Under the pieces are notes generated by a model. It did no database searches. It was given only the letters and a program-made list of their open reading frames with translations, and was not told where the DNA came from. A stretch of 57,230 bases of DNA from a virus (lineage: Duplodnaviria > Caudoviricetes), in IMG/VR virus record IMGVR_UViG_3300025120_012119, positions 1-57,230 of that record; one strand, written 5' to 3'. Positions 2,579 through 57,230 of this stretch are shown one piece after another (the first letter of the stretch is position 1; each line of letters starts with the position of its first letter). Made by a program: the position numbers and the translations under genes.

Positions 2579-5500
2579 ATGGCATTAGATAAAACTAAAA
2601 AATCAAATAGGTTACTTGCGAGTAGGAGGTATACGATGGAACAAAGTTCGGATGCTCAAGAAGCATTCACAAGTGTACTTGACATCAATGCATCTGAAGT
2701 TTATATTGACCAAGCAGCTATCCCAACTACAGGTTTACCATACTCAGGGAGTACTCAAAATGGAGAATATGTGTTATCTGGTAGTGCTAATTTATTAAGA
2801 TATTATTATCAAGAACAATTAACACCCTCAAATGTTGTTAATGGTTCAAAAACAGAAGTATTCTTTTTAATATCAGCATCAGGACATAACCCAGCAACTG
2901 CAGTAACACCTCAAATTATACAAGCAGGTCAACAAGGTAGTTTTATTTCTCCAAAATATTCGGATCCATCTTTAACAAATGCTGATACAGAAGATTTAAC
3001 ACCAGGTTATAATGTAACTATTAGAGTAAATGGTACTAAACAAAACCCATCAAATTATCAGTTTGATTATAAAACAGGTGTAATACAGTTTGTGGATGCA
3101 GATGTAGCACCTACTACAGGTGATACAGTAAAATGTTCAGTTTATCAATATGTTGGTAGAACATTAAGTGATAGTGCTGGAGGTAGTGGACAAGGTTTCC
3201 CATTTTCAGGATCAGCTCAGATTACAGGATCAGTTGGAGGAGTAGCTGGAGGGTTTGCAGTAACAGGTAGTAGTACTTTTGATATAAGTGGAACAGGAGA
3301 TGATTTTAAAATAGAATCAGCACCAATACAAGATTTTCCTTTTGTATTAACATATGCAACAGGATCTGGTAAAATAGGATATGTTGAAGTATCATCAGGT
3401 ACAAGTGGTGTAGCAGGTTCAAATGGTTCTGCTGGTGTATCAGGAACAAGTGGTTCATCAGGTTCATCAGGAGCGACTGGTACTAATGGATCTTCAGGTC
3501 TTGCAGGTGTAAGTGGTTTAAGTGGAACTAATGGTTCTTCAGGATCATCAGGTGACGATGGTACTACAGGTTCAAGTGGAGAAAGTGGAACTTCGGGTTC
3601 AAGTGGAACTTCAGGTTCAAGTGGGACAACAGGTTCAGCAGGTTCTTCAGGAGCAGATGGAACTTCAGGTTCATCAGGTTTAGCTGGTGTTTCAGGATTA
3701 AGTGGAACTAATGGTTCATCAGGTTCATCAGGTGATGATGGAACAACAGGATCATCAGGTGAAAGTAAAACTTCAGGTTCAGCAGGTACAAGTGGATCTT
3801 CAGGTGAATCAGGAACAGTAGGTTCAAGTGGTTTAAGTGCAACTTCAGGTTCACAAGGTTCAAGTGGAGTAGCAGGTGCTTCAGGTTTAGCAGGAACAGC
3901 AGGTTCATCAGGATCATCAGGTGCAGATGGAACTACGGGTTCTTCAGGTGAAAGTAAAACTTCAGGATCTTCAGGTACAAATGGATCTTCAGGTGGAAAT
4001 GGAACTAATGGTTCATCAGGTCTTGCAGGTGCAAGTGGTTTAAGTGGTACTAATGGTTCATCAGGTTCTTCAGGAGATGATGGTACAACGGGTTCAAGTG
4101 GAGAAAGTAAAACTTCAGGTTCAGCAGGATCAAGTGGTTCATCAGGTGGTAGTGGTACTGTAGGTTCAAGTGGTTTAAGCGCGACATCAGGTTCACAAGG
4201 TTCAAGTGGTGTGGCAGGAGCGTCAGGTTTAGCAGCAACAGCAGGTTCATCAGGTTCTTCAGGAGCTGATGGAACAACAGGCTCAGCAGGTTTATCAGGT
4301 CAAGCAAATACTTCAGGCTCAGCAGGTACAAGTGGTTCAAACGGTTCTTCAGGTAATGATGGTACTTCAGGTTCATCAGGTCTTGCAGGTGTAAGTGGTT
4401 TAAGTGGTACTAATGGCTCTTCTGGATCATCAGGAGACGATGGTACAACAGGTTCAAGTGGAGAAAGTGCAACTTCAGGATCTACAGGATCTTCAGGTTT
4501 AAGTGGTGGTTCAGGAACAGTAGGATCTTCAGGAGCAAGTGCAACTTCAGGATCTACGGGATCTAGTGGTGTAGCAGGAGCATCAGGTTTAGCAGCAACA
4601 GCAGGTTCATCAGGTTCTTCAGGAGCTGATGGAACAACAGGCTCAAGTGGAGAAAGTGGAGGAAGTGGAACTTCAGGCTCAGCAGGTACAAGTGGTTCAA
4701 ATGGTTCTTCAGGAGATAATGGAACTTCAGGTTCATCAGGTTTAGCTGGTGTCTCAGGATTAAGTGGAACTAATGGTTCATCAGGTTCTTCAGGAGATGA
4801 TGGTACTACAGGTTCAAGTGGAGAAAGTAAAACTTCTGGATCTTCAGGTACAAATGGTTCAAGTGGTGGAAGTGGTACAGTAGGATCTTCAGGTGCATCA
4901 GCAACAGCTGGTTCATCAGGTTCAAATGGTTCAAGTGGTAATGCAGGAGAAGCAGGAGCAAGTGCAACTTCAGGTTCTTCAGGAACTTCAGGTTCTGTAG
5001 GTTCATCAGGTGATTCAGGTGGTAGTGGAACAGCAGGCTCTTCGGGAGCAAGTGCAACTTCAGGTTCACAAGGTTCAAGTGGTGTATCAGCTGCTTCAGG
5101 ATTAAGTGGAACAGCAGGTTCATCAGGATCAAGTGGCGCAGATGGTACTACTGGTTCTTCAGGAGATAGTGCAACTTCAGGTTCAACTGGTTCTTCAGGT
5201 GCCAGTGGTGGTTCAGGAACAGTAGGATCTTCAGGAAGTAGTCAAACATCAGGATCTTCGGGTTCAAACGGTTCTTCAGGTAATACGGGTGCAGCAGGTC
5301 AAAGTGCATCTTCAAATACTTCAGGATCTAGTGGTACAAATGGTTCTTCAGGTGATTCAGGAGGTAGTGGAACATCAGGTTCTTCAGGTTTAAGTGGACA
5401 ATCTGGTACAAATGGTTCAGCTGGATCTAGTGGAGTATCAGGTGTAGCAGGGAATAGTGGAACAGCAGGTTCATCAGGTTCTTCAGGAGCTGATGGGACA

Positions 5501-10210: not shown

Positions 10211-10774
10211 ATGTCTTATATATCTCAAAGTTTAACATTTAGTGAAGATAAAATAATATTTGCTGACGTAGAAAATAATGAATTTGAAGTTATGATGGAT
10301 TGGGAAAATCCTCTAATGTCAGCTTCAGCAGCTTATATATGTGAAGGAGGAGGTGATATACTTGAAATTGGATTTGGAATGGGTATATCAGCTAATTATA
10401 TTCAATCACATACAATTAATTCACATACTATTATAGAAAACCACCCAGATATGATTCCAAAAGCTCAAGCATGGGCTGCTGATAAATCTAATGTAACTAT
10501 AGTAGAAGGTGATTGGTATGGTGTAAAAGATACTTTAAGTACTTATGATGGTTTATTTATGGATACTTATGGAGATAAGAATATGAAATATTTTTCATCT
10601 TCATTATCATCATTAATAAAAGTAGGAGGAAAAGCTACTTGGTGGAATTCAATGACAGGATCAGATAATTATTATAATATACCTGAGGTAACATATGATA
10701 TCCACAATATAACTCCTCCATCAAACACATATTTTAACCACACACAATATTATTTGCCCAAAAAACAGTTTTAA
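10211..10774 (+). CDS. Class I SAM-dependent methyltransferase, GAMT/RMT2-like
   Basis: VMMDWENPLM, motif I ILEIGFGMGISA, HTIIENHP, YDGLFMDTY. Confidence 0.8.
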   Translation: MSYISQSLTFSEDKIIFADVENNEFEVMMDWENPLMSASAAYICEGGGDILEIGFGMGISANYIQSHTINSHTIIENHPDMIPKAQAWAADKSNVTIVEGDWYGVKDTLSTYDGLFMDTYGDKNMKYFSSSLSSLIKVGGKATWWNSMTGSDNYYNIPEVTYDIHNITPPSNTYFNHTQYYLPKKQF

Positions 10775-11467
10775 ATGGCAACAACTACTATATACGCAAC
10801 AACAGGACTTACTGGAAGAGGATTTATTCAAGCTCAAAACGAAGAGTGGGATGAAGCAGTAGCAGCGGATTCAGGAACTGTTTCTTCTAACTCCTCAAAC
10901 TCATTAGGTGTTAGAGCAGGGTTTGTAGAAGGTAGAGGAGGTGGTCAATTTTTTGTTTCTCGAGCTTATGCTTATTTTGATACAAGTGCTGTTACCACTA
11001 CAGTTACAGCGGCTACAGTTAAAGTATATTCAAGCGGAACTAATGGAGGTAATATTAGAATGTATAAAAGTACGGCTTTTGGTAATAATGGCTCAACATT
11101 GTCATCAGATGATTTTCCAGCCGTAACTTCAACTTTATATTCATCAGCTGATTATGGTGAGTTAAATTGGGGGACTAATCAATTGCGATCTTTTTCTTGT
11201 AATGCTACAGCTGTTTCAAATATAAATGATGTTAATTATCTTAATGTTGTTTTTAGAAATGATAAAGATGTTGATGAAGATGAACCTGGAGAAGATTTTT
11301 ATCTAGGAGTTAATTTTTTAACTTCTGGAACTAATAGAATTCAAATTCAATTAACACATGCGGATGCAGGTTATGGCAATCAAGTTAATACTGTTACAGC
11401 AGCAAAAATAAGCAACGTTGTAGGGGTAGCAACAGCTAATATCGCAAACGTAATAGGAGTTTCATAA
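10775..11467 (+). CDS. Putative virion structural protein (beta-rich, possibly carbohydrate-binding)
   Basis: 230-aa ORF abutting the previous gene, S/T/G/A-rich, with a RAYAYFDTS..VTAATVKVY pattern like DNRLRE-type beta-sandwich domains and a short C-terminal repeat (ISNVVGV/IANVIGV). Confidence 0.5.
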   Translation: MATTTIYATTGLTGRGFIQAQNEEWDEAVAADSGTVSSNSSNSLGVRAGFVEGRGGGQFFVSRAYAYFDTSAVTTTVTAATVKVYSSGTNGGNIRMYKSTAFGNNGSTLSSDDFPAVTSTLYSSADYGELNWGTNQLRSFSCNATAVSNINDVNYLNVVFRNDKDVDEDEPGEDFYLGVNFLTSGTNRIQIQLTHADAGYGNQVNTVTAAKISNVVGVATANIANVIGVS

Positions 11468-47649: not shown

Positions 47650-47982
47650 ATGAAAAAACTGTTAATAATATTACTGTTAACTGTAGCATGTACTTTTTCA
47701 GCACAATCACAAATAATAGTAACTCATTTTAATGCAGAATGGAATTCCCCTAATAAAGCAGAATGGGTAGGAAAATTAACAGATTGTGAAATTACATATG
47801 TAGATATTGCTAAAAACCCAAAACTTCAACAAAAACATAAAGTAGTGGTTGTACCTACAATTATTATATTTAAAGATGGTGAAGAAATAAAAAGATATCA
47901 AGCAGATATTTCTTTTAAAATGTTAGCAACTAAAAACGAACTCCAAGAAGAAATTGATGAAATTATAATGAGTTCATTCTAA
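47650..47982 (+). CDS. Exported thioredoxin-fold protein lacking CxxC
   Basis: Signal peptide, HFNAEWN in place of F.A.WCxxC, VVPTIIIFKDGEEIKR. Confidence 0.75.
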   Translation: MKKLLIILLLTVACTFSAQSQIIVTHFNAEWNSPNKAEWVGKLTDCEITYVDIAKNPKLQQKHKVVVVPTIIIFKDGEEIKRYQADISFKMLATKNELQEEIDEIIMSSF

Positions 47983-50215: not shown

Positions 50216-51007
50216 ATGAAAATCAAAGTAAGCCACGAAACACCAATGTGTTTATTAGAAGATAGTCTAAAGTTCAATGATTATGACTATTGCCTCCCCC
50301 ATTTATTAGATGAAGAGCCTAAATATTTAGAATATTTTAAAAAAGCAAAATCAGCAGGTCGCTATATTATAATGGATAATTCACTCCATGAATTAGGTGA
50401 AGCTTATAACCATCAACGTTTAATACATTGGGTAAATGAAATTAGACCAAATGAATTTATTGTCCCTGATGTTTGGGAAAATATGGAAGAATCTATACAA
50501 AATGCTACAATATGGGATTTATATGATTTTCCTGAGGGGGTTGAAAAAGTAGCAGTAGTTCAAGCAAAAACACTACATGAAGCAGCTCAATGTGCTAAAG
50601 CATATAAAGATTTAGGTTATGGTAAAATATGTTTTTCTTATGGGGCTAGTTATTATAATGATATTTGTACTCACCCAAATAAAGATTTAGGTAAAGCATT
50701 AGGTAGATTATTTGTTATTTCAACTTTACTAAAAACAGGTGAATTAAAACAAGATGATAGAATACATTTATTAGGTTGTGCTGTTCCTCAAGAATTTGGG
50801 TGGTATCAAAATATAAATTGTATTGAATCAATTGATACATCAAATCCCGTAATGGCTACCTTAGAAGATATTCAATATAACCACTCAGGTTTATTTACAA
50901 AACCAAAAGCTAATATGAATGATTATTTTTATATGTTAGAGGATCAAGTAGATTATGATTTATTAGATTATAATCTTAATAAATTTAAATTAATTAATAA
51001 CTTATGA
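50216..51007 (+). CDS. TGT-fold guanine transglycosylase-like protein (divergent DpdA-like)
   Basis: IIMDNSLHE (cf. TGT DSG), IVPDV, VAVVQ, RIHLLG, ESIDTSNP; clustered with queC/D/E and folE. Confidence 0.6.
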   Translation: MKIKVSHETPMCLLEDSLKFNDYDYCLPHLLDEEPKYLEYFKKAKSAGRYIIMDNSLHELGEAYNHQRLIHWVNEIRPNEFIVPDVWENMEESIQNATIWDLYDFPEGVEKVAVVQAKTLHEAAQCAKAYKDLGYGKICFSYGASYYNDICTHPNKDLGKALGRLFVISTLLKTGELKQDDRIHLLGCAVPQEFGWYQNINCIESIDTSNPVMATLEDIQYNHSGLFTKPKANMNDYFYMLEDQVDYDLLDYNLNKFKLINNL

Positions 51008-51186
51008 AAGCAACATATACTAATAAAGACACTTTTGTAATTCCTATTAAAATAGGTGATATTATATTAACAGGTAGATTTAGAAATAAACCAGTAAAAG
51101 TAAAAGAAGTTGGAATTGATGAATTAGGCCAACCCACAGTAAACGGAAACCCAATATTAAAATTTAGACTACCAAAAGTAATGTAA
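51004..51186 (+). CDS. Small hypothetical protein
   Basis: 60 aa, overlaps the previous stop, IKIGDIILTGRFRNK..IDELGQPTVNG. Confidence 0.6.
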   Translation: MKATYTNKDTFVIPIKIGDIILTGRFRNKPVKVKEVGIDELGQPTVNGNPILKFRLPKVM

Positions 51187-51187
51187 T

Positions 51188-51382
51188 ATGGCAAAATTAA
51201 CAAGAACAGTAAATTACGCAAACTTCAGATGGGAAGAATATGTGTTAACAGAAGAAGAATTAGCAAAGTGGAAAACAGGGGATGAAGATATTCAACAAGA
51301 AATCATAGATGATGCAGATTGGGACCTGGTAAGAGATAAACCAATTGATGATTATGGTGACGTAGAATTTGTAGAAGAATAA
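51188..51382 (+). CDS. Small acidic hypothetical protein
   Basis: 64 aa, 1-nt spacing to its neighbours. Confidence 0.6.
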   Translation: MAKLTRTVNYANFRWEEYVLTEEELAKWKTGDEDIQQEIIDDADWDLVRDKPIDDYGDVEFVEE

Positions 51383-51383
51383 T

Positions 51384-51605
51384 ATGTTAAAGAAACAAGC
51401 AATACGTCAACAAAAAATATATTTAAATAAATCTTCAGAACCAATTGTTCAAAAAGATGAAGTTATTTTACTTAGTGAAAATTGGAATGAAAATGAAGAA
51501 TTTTTATTTAGAAAACTTCTTAAACAGGGTGGGAGTGCAAACATACAAGGAACTCATTTTAGAGTGGTTGTTCAAGAAAGAATGTATAAATTAAAAGATA
51601 TGTAA
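51384..51605 (+). CDS. Small hypothetical protein
   Basis: 73 aa, tightly packed in the operon. Confidence 0.6.
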   Translation: MLKKQAIRQQKIYLNKSSEPIVQKDEVILLSENWNENEEFLFRKLLKQGGSANIQGTHFRVVVQERMYKLKDM

Positions 51606-51608
51606 TAT

Positions 51609-51642
51609 AGCGTTTGCCTATACGCTTAAAATACCTGGCAAA
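51609..51642 (+). ncRNA. Candidate cis-regulatory H-type pseudoknot (preQ1-I-like architecture) in the queC leader
   Basis: P1 AGCG/CGCT around the 10-nt loop TTTGCCTATA, then TAAAA, then GGCAAA complementary to loop TTTGCC; 15 nt before the queC ATG. Confidence 0.45.
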
Positions 51643-51657
51643 TTTAAAATAAATAAA

Positions 51658-52506
51658 ATGGAACAATTAGAAATTAATTTTAAAGACGCACAACGTCCAA
51701 AACACGCAGTAGTATCACTTTCAGGTGGTATGGATTCAAGTACATTATTACTTAGATGTCTTAATGAATTTGAAACAGTAACAGCTTTATCATTTGATTA
51801 TGGTCAAAAACATAAAGTTGAACTAAAAAGAGCAAGAGCATTAGTAGATTATTTAAAAAGAAATGGTCATAATGTTGCTTATCAAACAATTAAATTAGAT
51901 GGTTTAGTAGAATTACTAGACTCAGCATTAGTTGAAGGTGGAGATGAAGTACCAGAAGGACATTATGCAGCTGAAAATATGAAAGCTACAGTAGTACCTA
52001 ATAGAAATAAAATATTTGCTTCAATTACTCAAGCGGTTGCTTTATCAGTAGCAAATAGAACTGAAGAACAAACATCAATTGCTTTAGGAATTCACAGTGG
52101 TGATCATGATATTTATCCTGATTGCAGACAAGAATTTAGGGATGCAGATGATAAAGCATTTAGAGAAGGTAATTGGGATGCTGAAAGAGTAGGATATTAT
52201 ACTCCATATCTTGAAGGTGATAAATTTACTATTTTACAAGATGGAGAAATATTATGTGAAAAATTAGGAATTGATTTTGATGAAGTTTATGCTAGGACAA
52301 ATACTTCATACAAACCAACACCAGAGGGGTGGAGTGATTATAAATCAGCTTCTTCAGTAGAAAGAATTGAAGCATTTATTAAACTTGGAAGACCTGATCC
52401 TGTACAATATGCAGATGAAACGGGTGCAGTTGATTATGAAACAGCTAGGATTTATGTAGAACAAGTTCTTGCTGAATATGAAAAAGAACAATTAAACAAT
52501 AAATAA
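51658..52506 (+). CDS. queC: 7-cyano-7-deazaguanine synthase QueC (Zn-Cys motif degenerate)
   Basis: SLSGGMDS, FDYGQKHKVEL, TVVPNRN, YPDCRQEF. Confidence 0.92.
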   Translation: MEQLEINFKDAQRPKHAVVSLSGGMDSSTLLLRCLNEFETVTALSFDYGQKHKVELKRARALVDYLKRNGHNVAYQTIKLDGLVELLDSALVEGGDEVPEGHYAAENMKATVVPNRNKIFASITQAVALSVANRTEEQTSIALGIHSGDHDIYPDCRQEFRDADDKAFREGNWDAERVGYYTPYLEGDKFTILQDGEILCEKLGIDFDEVYARTNTSYKPTPEGWSDYKSASSVERIEAFIKLGRPDPVQYADETGAVDYETARIYVEQVLAEYEKEQLNNK

Positions 52507-52507
52507 T

Positions 52508-52729
52508 ATGGAAGATAAAAACTTAAATAAAGAAGTAGATAAAATAGTTCAACAACTAGCAGGTAAAAATATTAAAGAATTACCTGATGCTTATTTACAC
52601 CAAAAAATCAGTTTTTTTAAGTCAGGTGTCAGAATATTAGGGTATATTTTCATCCCTTTTAGTTTGGTTACTGCAACAGCTTTGCTTATATTGAGTGAAG
52701 TAATAGGTATAATTGAAGAATTAGTATAA
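52508..52729 (+). CDS. Small membrane protein
   Basis: HQKISFFKSGVRILGY..LILSEVIGIIEELV, hydrophobic C-terminal half. Confidence 0.65.
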   Translation: MEDKNLNKEVDKIVQQLAGKNIKELPDAYLHQKISFFKSGVRILGYIFIPFSLVTATALLILSEVIGIIEELV

Positions 52730-52747: not shown

Positions 52748-53005
52748 ATGAACAAAGGAATTTTATATTTTAGTGCTCCTTGGTGTGGACCTTGTAAAGC
52801 ACTTTCCCCACAGATGGAAGAAATCGCAAAATCTGGCATCCCAGTTAAAAAAATTAATATTGATTATGATGCTGAATTTCCAGCAAAATACAGTGTTAAA
52901 AGTATCCCAACTGTTATCTTATGTGATTTAAATGGGACTGAAATTAAAAGGCATGTTGGTGCTTTTGATGGTATAACAGCTATAAAAAATTGGTATAATG
53001 GGTAA
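52748..53005 (+). CDS. trxA: Thioredoxin
   Basis: FSAPWCGPCK, VKSIPTVI. Confidence 0.9.
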   Translation: MNKGILYFSAPWCGPCKALSPQMEEIAKSGIPVKKINIDYDAEFPAKYSVKSIPTVILCDLNGTEIKRHVGAFDGITAIKNWYNG

Positions 53006-53462
53006 ATTTCAATCAAGCAAAGTGTTTGATGGGTTTTCTACTGTTTTTCGTCAATGGAAAGCTGAGGATACTCATTGTAGGTTTTTACACGGTTATGGAA
53101 TTAGTTTTAAAGTATATTTTGAAGGAGAACTAGATCATAGAAATTGGGTTTGGGATTTTGGAGGAATGAAAAGAGCTAAAAATAAAATTGATGGTAAATC
53201 TCCTAAAGAATGGATGGATTATATGTTTGACCATACAGTAGTTATAGCTGAAGATGACCCAGGTATTAAAGGTTTTGAAACTATGGATAAATTAGGAGTA
53301 ATTCAATTAAGAATAATTCCAGCAACTGGTGCAGAGAAATTTGCTGAGTATATTTATGGTAACATAAATAAATTTGTTAAAGCTGAAACTGATAATAGGG
53401 TCAGAGTTACTAAAGTTAAGTTTATGGAACATGGTAAAAATGCTGCTTACTACAGCGAATAG
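52998..53462 (+). CDS. queD: 6-carboxy-5,6,7,8-tetrahydropterin synthase QueD (variant)
   Basis: HCRFLHGY, WVWDFG, FDH, GAEKFAEYI, V..MEH; located between queC and queE. Confidence 0.85.
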   Translation: MGKFQSSKVFDGFSTVFRQWKAEDTHCRFLHGYGISFKVYFEGELDHRNWVWDFGGMKRAKNKIDGKSPKEWMDYMFDHTVVIAEDDPGIKGFETMDKLGVIQLRIIPATGAEKFAEYIYGNINKFVKAETDNRVRVTKVKFMEHGKNAAYYSE

Positions 53463-53471
53463 AAGAATAAC

Positions 53472-53499
53472 AGTGAATGAAAAACCACTTAAAAAAATT
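53472..53499 (+). ncRNA. Candidate preQ1-I-like hairpin plus A-tail element in the queE leader
   Basis: AGTG-AATGAAAAAC-CACT-TAAAAAAATT, the same geometry as the queC element with a compensatory stem change. Confidence 0.35.
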
Positions 53500-53505
53500 A
53501 ACAAT

Positions 53506-54288
53506 ATGCACAAACAATTAAAAAGAATCGAGGATTATAATAAAATCCTCCCAGTTTTAGAAGTATACACAGCCGTACAATCAGAAGGTAGTAGACAAGG
53601 ATACCCAACAATAGTAGTTAGAACAACAGGTTGTACTCACAGATGTTATTTTGGTGAAGGAGGATGGTGTGATTCATGGTACACAAGCATTCATCCAGAA
53701 AAAGGTACATATTCATTTCAGGATATAATAGATACTTATGATCAACACCCTCACATAAAAGAAATGATGTTAACAGGAGGTTCACCTACTATGCATCCTA
53801 AACTAGTAAATGAATTAACTCATTTTGCTCATGAAAGAAACATTTTTATTACTATTGAAACTGAGGGATCTCATTTCCTCCCTACTGATTATCCCATTAA
53901 TCTTCTTAGCATTTCTCCTAAGTTCAGTAATAGCGTTCCCGTTTTGGGTGCTGTTACTCCTCAAGGAAAAGATGTGGACGAAAAAATGATAAAAACACAT
54001 AATAGATTAAGATTAAATTATGAAGCAATAAAACAATCTATTGAATATCATTCTGATTACCACATTAAACCTGTATTGGATAAGAATTTATCTATGATAG
54101 AAGAGGTAGAAACATTTATAAAAGAATGTAGTATACCAGATAATAAAGTTTGGGCTATGCCTGCTGGAGATACTAGGGAATCTTTAATGGAATCATACCC
54201 TGAAGTAATGAATTTTGTAAGAGATAGGGGATGGAGATTTACAGGTAGATCTCATATTATGGCTTTTGATACTGAACGTTGTGTCTAA
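53506..54288 (+). CDS. queE: 7-carboxy-7-deazaguanine synthase QueE (radical SAM); likely start ATG 53506
   Basis: EVYTAVQSEG, VRTTGCTHRC..WCDS, LTGGSP, IETEG, SISPK. The listed upstream start at 53374 overlaps queD. Confidence 0.9.
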   Translation: MHKQLKRIEDYNKILPVLEVYTAVQSEGSRQGYPTIVVRTTGCTHRCYFGEGGWCDSWYTSIHPEKGTYSFQDIIDTYDQHPHIKEMMLTGGSPTMHPKLVNELTHFAHERNIFITIETEGSHFLPTDYPINLLSISPKFSNSVPVLGAVTPQGKDVDEKMIKTHNRLRLNYEAIKQSIEYHSDYHIKPVLDKNLSMIEEVETFIKECSIPDNKVWAMPAGDTRESLMESYPEVMNFVRDRGWRFTGRSHIMAFDTERCV

Positions 54289-55440: not shown

Positions 55441-56490
55441 ATGTCAGATCCAATTAAATACGCAGAAGAATTACCAGATAATGCTGTTTTAAAAACCACA
55501 ACAGCCGCAGGAGTATCAAACGTAAACTATGGTCCTACTTCAACAACAGGTTGGTATAATGGTTTAAGAACAACTGGGTATACTATTGCAAAAGGAGTAG
55601 AGGGAGCCTCACCTCATATTTATTCCCCTGCAGATGATGCTGGGGTTATTCAATTTTGTAATACAACAATATCACCATCCCCGTCATCAACAATCACTAC
55701 AATAGATGAAGCTTTAGATTATATTTCTACTACTGATTATATGATTTTTCATGGAACAGATAATATAGATAATTTTCCTGTAGGTTTACCTATGGATGGG
55801 TTATCATCTTACTTAGACGCACAAATCGACGTTAGTGCAGGGACAACAGGTGAATGGAAAGATGTAAGTGGAAATGGTTTATGTTTTTATATATATGGTA
55901 CTCAACTAACCAGAACTTCTTTAGGAGGATATACAGGTTTTCAATTTAATAACTCAGGATATTATCAATGTAATGATAAGTATGGTGCTGTTAATATAGG
56001 AGGAGATTGTACTATAGTTATGTGGGTTTGGTGTACTAATATCACAGAAAGGGATACTATTTTTGAAAAAGCAGGAAATGGAGGCACTTCATACCAATGT
56101 TCAGTAGCTATTACTTGGGAAACAAATCAAGCATTTTCTTATTACTCAAGAAAAACTGATGCTTATGATCATGCAGGTACATCAGCTTGTGATACTAATG
56201 GTGGTGAAGGTGCTTGGACTATGATGGCTATTAAAATGAGTACAGGTTTAACTTCAACCGCAAGAACTGGATTTTACTCTAAAAATGGAGCTAATTGGAC
56301 TGCTAATTACAATTCAAGGAGTAACACAGCATTAGTTAGAGGACAACAAATTAGAGTTGGATATGGTTATGCTGGCCCCGTAGAAGGATCAAATGGTATT
56401 GGAGCTTTATTAACATATAATAAAATGCTTTCTAATACTGAAATAGATGAGGTTTATGATGCTATGAAAGGAAGATATGGACTAAGTTAA
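55441..56490 (+). CDS. LamG/concanavalin A-like domain protein (probable virion lectin)
   Basis: LSSYLDA..WKDVSGNG, CTIVMWV, YNKMLSNTEIDEVYDAMKGRYGL. Confidence 0.75.
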   Translation: MSDPIKYAEELPDNAVLKTTTAAGVSNVNYGPTSTTGWYNGLRTTGYTIAKGVEGASPHIYSPADDAGVIQFCNTTISPSPSSTITTIDEALDYISTTDYMIFHGTDNIDNFPVGLPMDGLSSYLDAQIDVSAGTTGEWKDVSGNGLCFYIYGTQLTRTSLGGYTGFQFNNSGYYQCNDKYGAVNIGGDCTIVMWVWCTNITERDTIFEKAGNGGTSYQCSVAITWETNQAFSYYSRKTDAYDHAGTSACDTNGGEGAWTMMAIKMSTGLTSTARTGFYSKNGANWTANYNSRSNTALVRGQQIRVGYGYAGPVEGSNGIGALLTYNKMLSNTEIDEVYDAMKGRYGLS

Positions 56491-56496
56491 TTTAGT

Positions 56497-56525
56497 TTGG
56501 ATATCCTTAAATTAATTCGTATATT
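56497..56525 (+). promoter_or_regulatory. TTGGAT-N17-TATATT promoter
   Basis: TTGGAT at 56497-56502; TCGTATATT ends at 56525; upstream of folE. Confidence 0.7.
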
Positions 56526-56548
56526 AATAATAATAAAAAGTTATAAAA

Positions 56549-57230
56549 ATGGCTAAAAAACAAGACAAAGAAGTTCATGAAAAATTAGAAGTTGTACAAA
56601 AGGGTTTTGCAAATGGAGTTGCAACTAACTTTCCTTTAAATGATAAGCAAAAGGAAGAAATGATAAAAAAAGCTACTAAAGCATATGGAGAATTTTTAAC
56701 TGCATTAGATTGTGATTGGGAAAATGATCCTAATTCAAACGATACACCTAGAAGAGTAGCTAAAGCATATGTAAATGATTTATGGGCAGGTAGATATACT
56801 GCCATGTCACCAATTACATCATTTCCAAGTGATGGTTATGATGGTATTATTATTGAAAGAAATATTCCACTAACATCAATGTGTTCTCACCATCACCAAA
56901 CAATCGGGGGTGTTGTTCATATAGGTTATATAGCTGGAGATGAGGGTCAAGTAATTGGTTTATCTAAATTAAATAGAATAGTCGAATTATTTGGTCGTAG
57001 AGGAGCCATCCAAGAACAATTAACATCAGCTATTCACAATGCTGTAGATAAAATTACTGATGGAAATAGAGGTGTTATAATAACTATAGTTGCAACACAT
57101 AACTGTGTAAGCTGTAGAGGTGTTAAACATGGTGGGGCTTCAATGGTTACTACTAAAGCATCAGGAGTATTTAGACAAAATACTAATTTAGCAAGAAAAG
57201 AATTTTTTGATTCAATTAAAATTAATAATG
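56549..57230 (+). CDS. folE: GTP cyclohydrolase I FolE, 3'-truncated by the window edge (absent from the ORF track)
   Basis: Own translation from ATG 56549: DTPRRVAKAY, SMCSHH, IGLSKLNRIV, IQEQLT, HNCVSCRGV, G.F..RKEF. Confidence 0.93.
   Translation, partial: MAKKQDKEVHEKLEVVQKGFANGVATNFPLNDKQKEEMIKKATKAYGEFLTALDCDWENDPNSNDTPRRVAKAYVNDLWAGRYTAMSPITSFPSDGYDGIIIERNIPLTSMCSHHHQTIGGVVHIGYIAGDEGQVIGLSKLNRIVELFGRRGAIQEQLTSAIHNAVDKITDGNRGVIITIVATHNCVSCRGVKHGGASMVTTKASGVFRQNTNLARKEFFDSIKINN

Follow-up and report, generated by a model that had tools for sequence, protein, structure and literature searches.

A conserved H-type pseudoknot in the queC leader of marine Flavobacteriia-type phages, a putative riboswitch-like regulator of the 7-deazaguanine pathway

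The element between the upstream gene and queC

The window analysed here is a 57,230-nucleotide (nt) fragment of an uncultured virus record (IMGVR_UViG_3300025120_012119, positions 1 to 57,230) whose nearest GenBank relatives, as judged by blastn, are Flavobacterium phage immuto and Cellulophaga phages. In the region of interest, the open reading frames (ORFs) are separated by gaps of a single nucleotide (51004-51186, 51188-51382 and 51384-51605, then 51658-52506 and 52508-52729), with one exceptional gap of 52 nt between 51605 and 51658. This gap houses a small element that is predicted to fold into an RNA pseudoknot directly upstream of queC, the gene for 7-cyano-7-deazaguanine synthase. A previous sequence-only reading of the same DNA had pointed to the mostly 1-nt gaps, to the single 52-nt gap with the element and to queC as the gene that follows; the first two observations are borne out by the ORF list and the last one is confirmed by a Pfam QueC match (E 2.5e-37). 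The 73-codon ORF directly upstream of the element ends with a stop codon at 51603-51605, and the queC ATG is located at 51658.

The element consists, in this order, of AGCG (51609-51612), UUUGCCUAUA (51613-51622), CGCU (51623-51626), UAAAAUACCU (51627-51636) and GGCAAA (51637-51642), and the window reads exactly as the sequence-only reading had reported for its location and sequence. The 6-nt inverted repeat TTTGCC/GGCAAA is present in the inverted-repeat listing of the window. The segment 51609-51640 is predicted to encode a small (~35 nt) H-type RNA pseudoknot on the queC sense strand, with two helices (P1 and P2) and three loops (L1 to L3). Its parts are given below together with their conservation in two alignments, namely A1, which contains 114 distinct motif sequences, and A2, which contains 119 (A1 plus four variants with an ACC/GGU P2 and the sequence from phage immuto).

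51609-51612, plus strand: P1 5' strand, AGCG; pairs with 51623-51626 (99.3% paired, 119 distinct sequences)
51613-51615, plus strand: L1, UUU in the window; an invariant U followed by two variable bases (A1, A2)
51616-51618, plus strand: P2 5' strand, GCC; pairs with 51637-51639
51619-51622, plus strand: L2, UAUA; no change in any of the 119 distinct sequences (these bases were preset in the search patterns)
51623-51626, plus strand: P1 3' strand, CGCU; covaries with 51609-51612
51627-51629, plus strand: variable-length part of L3, which holds all length variation of the motif
51630-51636, plus strand: conserved part of L3, AAUACCU; A51631 to U51636 are invariant and A51630 is at least 90% conserved
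51637-51640, plus strand: P2 3' strand, GGC, and an invariant A, as seen in the alignment and the pairing counts
51641-51657, plus strand: A/U-rich spacer up to the start codon, with no Shine-Dalgarno sequence
51658-52506, plus strand: queC, the gene proposed to be regulated

The distance from GCC to GGCA varies between 23 and 27 nt. Apart from a switch of the outer P2 pair described below, the blocks GCCUAUA and AAUACCUGGCA are invariant, and the conserved part of L3 contains two invariant cytosines that are unpaired.

Conservation, covariation and fold

Within the window alone, the pairing is unremarkable: the pattern TTTGCC-N10-30-GGCAAA is present at least once in 13 of 100 shuffles, and the nested minimum free energy fold has a z of 0.21. 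The element rises far above chance because it is conserved before queC in other phages and because both helices covary. A covariance model built from the element (R1) matches 67 of 80 viral loci that were picked by QueC similarity only (70-96% identity), with one copy in each, always directly 5' of QueC, and no second copy in the ~6.8 kb per locus; the genes upstream of the motif differ among the carriers. The UAUA of L2 is invariant in these 67 matches as well. In the window, R1 has a single match of 64.6 bits, the next best scoring 9.4 bits. Independently of any gene, the pattern GCCTATA-N6-12-ATACCTGGCA was found in at least 120 viral loci, and a QueC ORF starts 8-57 nt downstream in 113 of the 120 matches listed; the others on this list are four matches with too little downstream DNA, two chance matches within coding sequence, and locus L145. 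Thus, conservation in related queC leaders, which the sequence-only reading had named as a check, is found in both the QueC-selected and the gene-blind set. Among the carriers, identity to the window QueC is as low as 48% (L087).

In L145 (10613-11879), seven codons left over from the queC start come after the motif, then an ORF of 62 codons (10737-10925) and finally a complete QueC with its own ATG at 11052. An insertion has parted the leader from the gene in this phage, leaving QueC 415 nt downstream of the motif; a group I intron was sought in the insert, with no Rfam match at E up to 0.01. A search for more distant leaders with the L087 QueC gave only two loci; one of these, L327, was new, and its leader is of the Shine-Dalgarno type and lacks the motif. 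Loci L012 and L013 share the upstream gene end with their close relatives L018, L020, L025 and L028 but contain no motif, and a short A-rich gap before QueC remains; this case (around position 2950-3000) is a clean presence/absence polymorphism of a module of ~40 nt.

When the same pattern was applied to one genome per prokaryotic species, a single genuine motif with QueC was identified among the 120 matches listed, the other 119 being chance matches. This sole cellular motif (L295 / L322, G002:C289) lies with a phage-type QueC on a 1756-nt contig of a metagenome-assembled genome, and this contig is probably phage DNA that was binned into that genome. A host version of the motif was considered and rejected, the only R1 match in 151 Flavobacteriaceae genomes being a 26.7-bit hit in antisense orientation inside an ORF, without GCCUAUA. 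Among GenBank phages, blastn matches to the element are confined to four records, all of immuto isolates and all lacking an annotated feature at this place; in Flavobacterium phage immuto itself (NC_055915), R1 scores 44.3 bits directly before the gp028 QueC gene. The carriers are a large group of marine Flavobacteriia-type phages, and the element is restricted to phage sequence.

Compensatory changes are found in both helices. P1 is paired in 99.5% of A1 and 99.3% of A2, and both sides change at three of its four pairs in A1 (G-C to A-U in 15, C-G to G-C or U-A in 17, and G-C to A-U in 14). The G51612-C51623 pair is G-C in 105 and A-U in 14 sequences of A2, with zero exceptions. Seven G.U pairs carry their G on the 5' side, an orientation that is compatible only with the strand that is sense for queC. 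P2 is paired in 100% of A2, and its outer pair, G51616-C51639, is G-C in 115 and A-U in 4 of the 119 sequences and never unpaired. Overall, both-side changes occur in four of the seven pairs in A2. The covariation score of A2 is 0.231 compared to 0.095 for shuffles, none of 500 shuffles reaching 0.231, and in a control in which the partners were slid by 1-3 columns only 18-39% of the cells pair.

The first search pattern fixed both GCC and GGC, hence the later scans in which the P2 partner was left free. Scans of IMG/VR with the commonest P1 subset returned no variant at any of the three GCC positions (0, 0, 0), nor did a scan of the metagenome collection at the third position. Freeing the first position in the metagenome collection gave three matches, all of the form ACC ... 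GGU and each 17-18 nt before a QueC ORF. In IMG/VR, the compensated ACC/GGT pattern yielded 34 rows with two true motifs before QueC, one of them on the same contig as a metagenome match, and the uncompensated ACC/GGC pattern yielded 25 rows with zero true motifs. The outer P2 pair is thus represented by four distinct compensated cases (L328, L329, L330 and L334) against zero uncompensated ones; given that these four sequences came from variant-targeted searches, their share in the alignment is not a frequency. The motif and spacer of L334 are identical to those of L193 save for the two compensating bases. When 118 distinct QueC proteins were placed on a FastTree phylogeny, 4 changes of the P2 type and 26 of the P1 type were counted, the four P2 variants being scattered over the tree; the changes are thus recurrent events and not one inherited accident. 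A further candidate variant with a 5-bp P2, in L021/L022, falls inside an upstream ORF that overlaps the queC start and was dropped as evidence on P2.

Accordingly, the P1/P2 covariation in related leaders that the sequence-only reading had suggested looking for is seen in three of four P1 pairs and one P2 pair, and these compensatory changes back its H-type pseudoknot of preQ1-I-like size and layout. The 6-bp P2 of that reading survives in part: the inner GCC/GGC is conserved, but the outer UUU/AAA pairs are neither conserved nor compensated, the pair next to GCC being formed in 52 of the 114 sequences of A1, the middle one in 81 and the outermost one in 98.

Two predicted folds fit the data. 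Fold A would be a preQ1-I-like knot with a U-N-N L1, a UAUA L2 and a long L3 that ends in AAUACCU. Fold B would be a compact classical H-type knot in which U51613-A51622 forms a fifth P1 pair and UAU (51619-51621) pairs with AUA (51631-51633), so that P2 might extend to six pairs around a bulged CCU (51634-51636). Fold B places every invariant base in a pair or bulge and all length variation in the one remaining loop. Covariation cannot choose between the two folds because the bases concerned never vary. The helix energies alone are -2.1 kcal/mol for P1 with four pairs, -5.1 kcal/mol with five pairs, and -3.2 kcal/mol for the P2 core; such a marginally stable fold is what a switch needs. Altogether, the element is almost certainly a functional structured RNA of the queC leader.

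Possible functions of the pseudoknot

The mRNAs of Bacteroidota lack Shine-Dalgarno sequences, and initiation in these bacteria depends on leaders that are A-rich and free of structure. An ATG was called in 121 distinct leaders; in 120 of these, it lies 16-24 nt from GGCA (mode 19), and 116 of the 121 have A at position -3. The spacer is 95.5% A+U with 1.5% G, which means that there is no Shine-Dalgarno sequence. In Flavobacterium johnsoniae, mRNA structure and the A at -3 have been described to tune initiation (PMC6847099).

With moderate confidence, we favor the possibility that the pseudoknot serves as the aptamer of a new, small and riboswitch-like regulator acting on translation in the phage 7-deazaguanine pathway. 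Several features typical of riboswitches are present, namely covarying helices, conserved unpaired bases, and an association with the gene of one pathway across divergent genomes. Under this proposal, a small molecule would stabilize the marginally stable knot, and the stabilized knot, located at -50 to -17, would hinder loading of the 30S subunit by steric block; alternatively, it might interfere with re-initiation by ribosomes that have translated the upstream ORF, the stop codon of which lies right next to P1 in the window. The outcome would be that QueC synthesis is tuned to the demand of DNA hypermodification. The steric mechanism appears to be the simplest one because Bacteroidota have no Shine-Dalgarno sequences, no alternative helix was detected, and the distance between the knot and the AUG is fixed.

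Several observations weigh against a metabolite sensor. The motif was not found with R1 in the host lineage (151 Flavobacteriaceae genomes); the hosts run the pathway too, so that such a sensor might be expected there, and the restriction to phages fits a phage-encoded partner equally well. The element is missing in 13 of the 80 QueC-selected loci, close relatives included, which implies that it is dispensable. The degree of invariance in GCC/GGC and the loop blocks exceeds what pairing requires, which is compatible with a ligand pocket and with a protein site alike; furthermore, covariation is silent on two of the three P2 pairs and on every proposed loop contact, none of which shows any variation. 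The base that recognizes preQ1 in class I is absent from the element. Finally, no conserved alternative helix was identified between the 3' block and the spacer plus the first 120 nt of queC, and in 52 of 123 leaders this region contains no complement of at least 5 nt to the 3' block. Two other possibilities were considered and rejected. Pairing over a longer distance, between the 3' block and the queC codons for SGGMDS, is contradicted by the 52 leaders without a complement and by the second Gly codon, which is GGU in just 36 of the 123 leaders. Readthrough or frameshifting stimulated by the knot is at odds with the frame past the upstream stop, which closes after 8 codons in the window, and with the stop distance, which varies among loci.

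The strongest alternative, which nevertheless seems rather unlikely to us, is a translational operator that is bound by a protein, either phage-encoded or QueC itself, and represses or times queC translation. Such an operator would account for the presence of the element in phage sequence only, for the invariance of 18 loop and P2 bases beyond structural need, for the lack of an expression platform with an alternative helix, and for the clean loss of the element in some close relatives. However, no candidate gene for an RNA-binding protein travels with the element, the upstream neighbors being different, and there is one target per genome, in contrast to the several targets or own-gene targets that are usual for phage repressors; small size, conserved unpaired bases and a tie to a single pathway are the usual marks of metabolite aptamers. 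There is a precedent for the layout: in the gene 32 mRNA of phage T4, a 5' leader pseudoknot followed by an unstructured A/U-rich stretch into the start codon is a translational operator, and this pseudoknot is the nucleation site for the gene 32 protein itself, which binds single-stranded nucleic acids. The layout of the queC leader is the same, but its gene encodes a biosynthetic enzyme.

A constitutive RNA element without sensing, such as a stabilizer (5'-terminal or internal), a site for ribosome standby or re-initiation, or a signal for RNase processing that would set a fixed QueC level, is improbable. The fixed distance to the AUG and the absence of a detectable switching helix are consistent with this possibility, as is the position of the element right after the upstream stop in many loci (of 128 distinct upstream flanks, 126 have a stop triplet, in whichever frame, no more than 12 nt away) and its location 16-48 nt after a promoter-like box in 30 of these flanks. 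Such an element should recur before other genes, however; instead, there is one copy in each locus and in the window, only at queC, and a purely structural role would allow more change in the loops than the near-complete invariance that is observed.

True membership in the preQ1-I family (RF00522, types I-III), as a diverged form that would still bind preQ1 or preQ0 in the class I manner, is very improbable despite an extensive resemblance. The element and preQ1-I are each an H-type pseudoknot of ~34 nt in which P1 is short and P2, where the 3' tail pairs with the P1 loop, is very short; both have a U directly after the P1 5' strand (invariant in the element) and an A-rich 3' tail, with the parts in the same order, and both are located before genes of 7-deazaguanine or queuosine synthesis such as queC. 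Nevertheless, the Rfam PreQ1 model finds nothing at its gathering score (39 bits) across the window, nor does it match within 51400-51800 when E values up to 10 are allowed, so that the comparison with the Rfam preQ1 models by Infernal, proposed in the sequence-only reading, shows that the element is not a diverged PreQ1 match; no other family of Rfam 15 matches it either. As a control, the model detects the Bacillus subtilis riboswitch and scores 50 bits on one of 101 Flavobacteriaceae genomes. This latter match (L324:1501-1545; G034:C41:20088-20132, minus strand) lies on the same strand as a 216-codon ORF and ends 2 nt ahead of it; a class I preQ1 riboswitch is present in the host family but rare.

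According to a 2024 review of the preQ1 riboswitch family (PMC11625349), the P1 3' strand of preQ1-I is always preceded by UC (type I) or AC (types II and III), and this cytosine pairs with the ligand. In the element, these two bases are UA in 119 of 119 distinct sequences; the sequence-only reading had already remarked on the A at the position of the specificity cytosine, and this A proves to be invariant. The adjacent C51623 is part of P1 and not the specificity cytosine because it covaries with G51612. Other differences are that the blocks GCCUAUA and AAUACCUGGCA bear no resemblance to the Rfam consensus, that the closing pair of P1 is not a fixed G-C (A-U in 14 of 119), that neither a Shine-Dalgarno sequence nor a terminator is available to be sequestered, and that the element is found only in phage sequence. 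The element therefore shares the architecture of preQ1-I but lacks two features that define this family, and it is not a member.

It is hardly credible that the element is a DNA-level signal (a gene-specific promoter or operator) or a chance inverted repeat: the two invariant blocks can be read as two boxes and their orientation and distance to the ATG are fixed, but the compensatory changes in two interleaved helices, the G.U pairs on one strand only, the block spacing that varies by 4 nt, which suits an RNA loop and not a two-box DNA site, and the negative sigma-70 scan argue against such a signal, and the location of 113 of the 120 listed gene-blind matches before QueC argues against chance.

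With regard to the ligand of the favored riboswitch-like regulator, phage immuto is one of the phages in which a 7-deazaguanine derivative takes the place of all guanine in the DNA, in its case a formylated preQ1 derivative (PMC10516641). A QueF domain is detectable in two of five near-complete carrier genomes (94-100% complete), and a divergent QueF may be missed by the search. If the lack of detection in the other three is real, the metabolites common to all carriers lie at or before preQ0, in which case the QueC product preQ0 or its substrate 7-carboxy-7-deazaguanine (CDG) would be better candidates than preQ1. Judging by gene content, the ligand would most likely be an intermediate of the 7-deazapurine type that every carrier makes, for instance preQ0 or CDG. 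It is a matter of speculation that the two invariant unpaired cytosines of the 3' tail recognize the guanine-like face. A more specific proposal, which we make only tentatively, is that the element represents a fourth, phage-exclusive class of 7-deazapurine riboswitch, with a 35-nt knot, a pocket for preQ0, CDG or a related intermediate that lacks the class I cytosine and perhaps uses the invariant unpaired CC of the 3' tail, and translational control in Bacteroidota, which lack Shine-Dalgarno sequences.

Compact pseudoknot aptamers that fold next to the ribosome-binding region and act on translation initiation are well known, namely SAM-II, SAM-V, guanidine-III and preQ1-II; these have unrelated ligands and regulate other sets of genes, and none of them matched the element in the Rfam scans. 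Structured cis-regulatory RNAs are also found before auxiliary metabolic genes of cyanophages (glutamine-type, manA and wcaG riboswitch-like RNAs). These families are included in Rfam, and most of them also occur in host genomes, in contrast to the present motif, which has no Rfam family and is absent from the 151 Flavobacteriaceae genomes searched. A description of the motif was not found in the open full texts searched; subscription journals and supplements were outside the scope, so that an earlier description is possible. The one paper that contains both "riboswitch" and "Cellulophaga phage" uses these words in unrelated places.

The same literature yielded nothing on the control of flux through the phage 7-deazaguanine DNA modification pathway, and the element before queC would be the first regulatory part of such pathways. 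If it binds a metabolite, it would be a new 7-deazapurine aptamer class with a recognition logic unlike that of preQ1-I, II and III, it would show riboswitch action on initiation in a phylum without Shine-Dalgarno pairing, and it would provide a compact part for engineering in Bacteroidota. Should it form a fourth class, it would be the first known RNA sensor that governs a DNA hypermodification pathway. The presence of the element in a cultured phage-host pair, immuto on Flavobacterium sp. LMO8, makes the question directly testable.

Transcription and the 7-deazaguanine gene string

No sigma-70-like promoter was detected at the element and no terminator-like site in 50900-52000 in a scan of the window. 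Contigs from RNA libraries (two runs of one study) cover the motif bin 51584-51640, which is weak support given that these are assembled contigs and that DNA carry-over is possible; in several of them, the match is limited to about 51604-51649 with divergence on either side, the pattern expected of relatives that share just the motif. These contigs demonstrate presence in RNA libraries, short of proof of transcription. The assembled contigs of RNA-seq runs X17 and X18 leave the motif bin without cover and are uninformative.

The box TTCGTATATTA is located at 56516-56526 of the window, 33 nt before the folE ATG. The same box, as TT[CT][GTA]TAT[AG]TT, is the one that precedes the motif in 30 of the 128 distinct upstream flanks mentioned above (L043-L078, L059, L091, L123 and others). 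By its recurrent position, it is a candidate phage promoter, in which case the pseudoknot would lie at the extreme 5' end of the queC transcript in those phages.

Downstream of queC, the following genes of the 7-deazaguanine gene string were identified.

52748-53005: thioredoxin-like ORF, between queC and queD
52998-53462, plus strand: queD-like gene of the PTPS family (Pfam PTPS, E 2.6e-14), in the same gene string as queC
53374-54288, plus strand: radical-SAM ORF, queE-like (Pfam Radical_SAM, E 3.9e-07)
56549-57229, plus strand: folE, GTP cyclohydrolase I, truncated at the window end (Pfam GTP_cyclohydroI, E 1.7e-42)

The real start of the radical-SAM ORF is probably later than the first listed TTG, and its homolog in a Cellulophaga phage, under the adjoining blastn match, carries a QueE annotation. 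A 349-aa ORF (55441-56490) between a phosphoribosyltransferase-like gene and folE has no Pfam match; judged by its position, it could be a divergent DNA transglycosylase (DpdA3-like). A Pfam TGT search for DpdA was negative in all five near-complete carrier genomes and is uninformative, DpdA3 being very divergent. The window encodes a second thioredoxin-like ORF at 47650-47982, and phage immuto likewise has a gene with a thioredoxin domain a few genes 5' of queC. The window QueC has 282 aa, with the Pfam QueC domain spanning residues 17-242, and the lengths of the carrier QueCs range from 262 to 309 aa; compared to the span of the domain, these proteins possess a C-terminal extension of ~40 aa.

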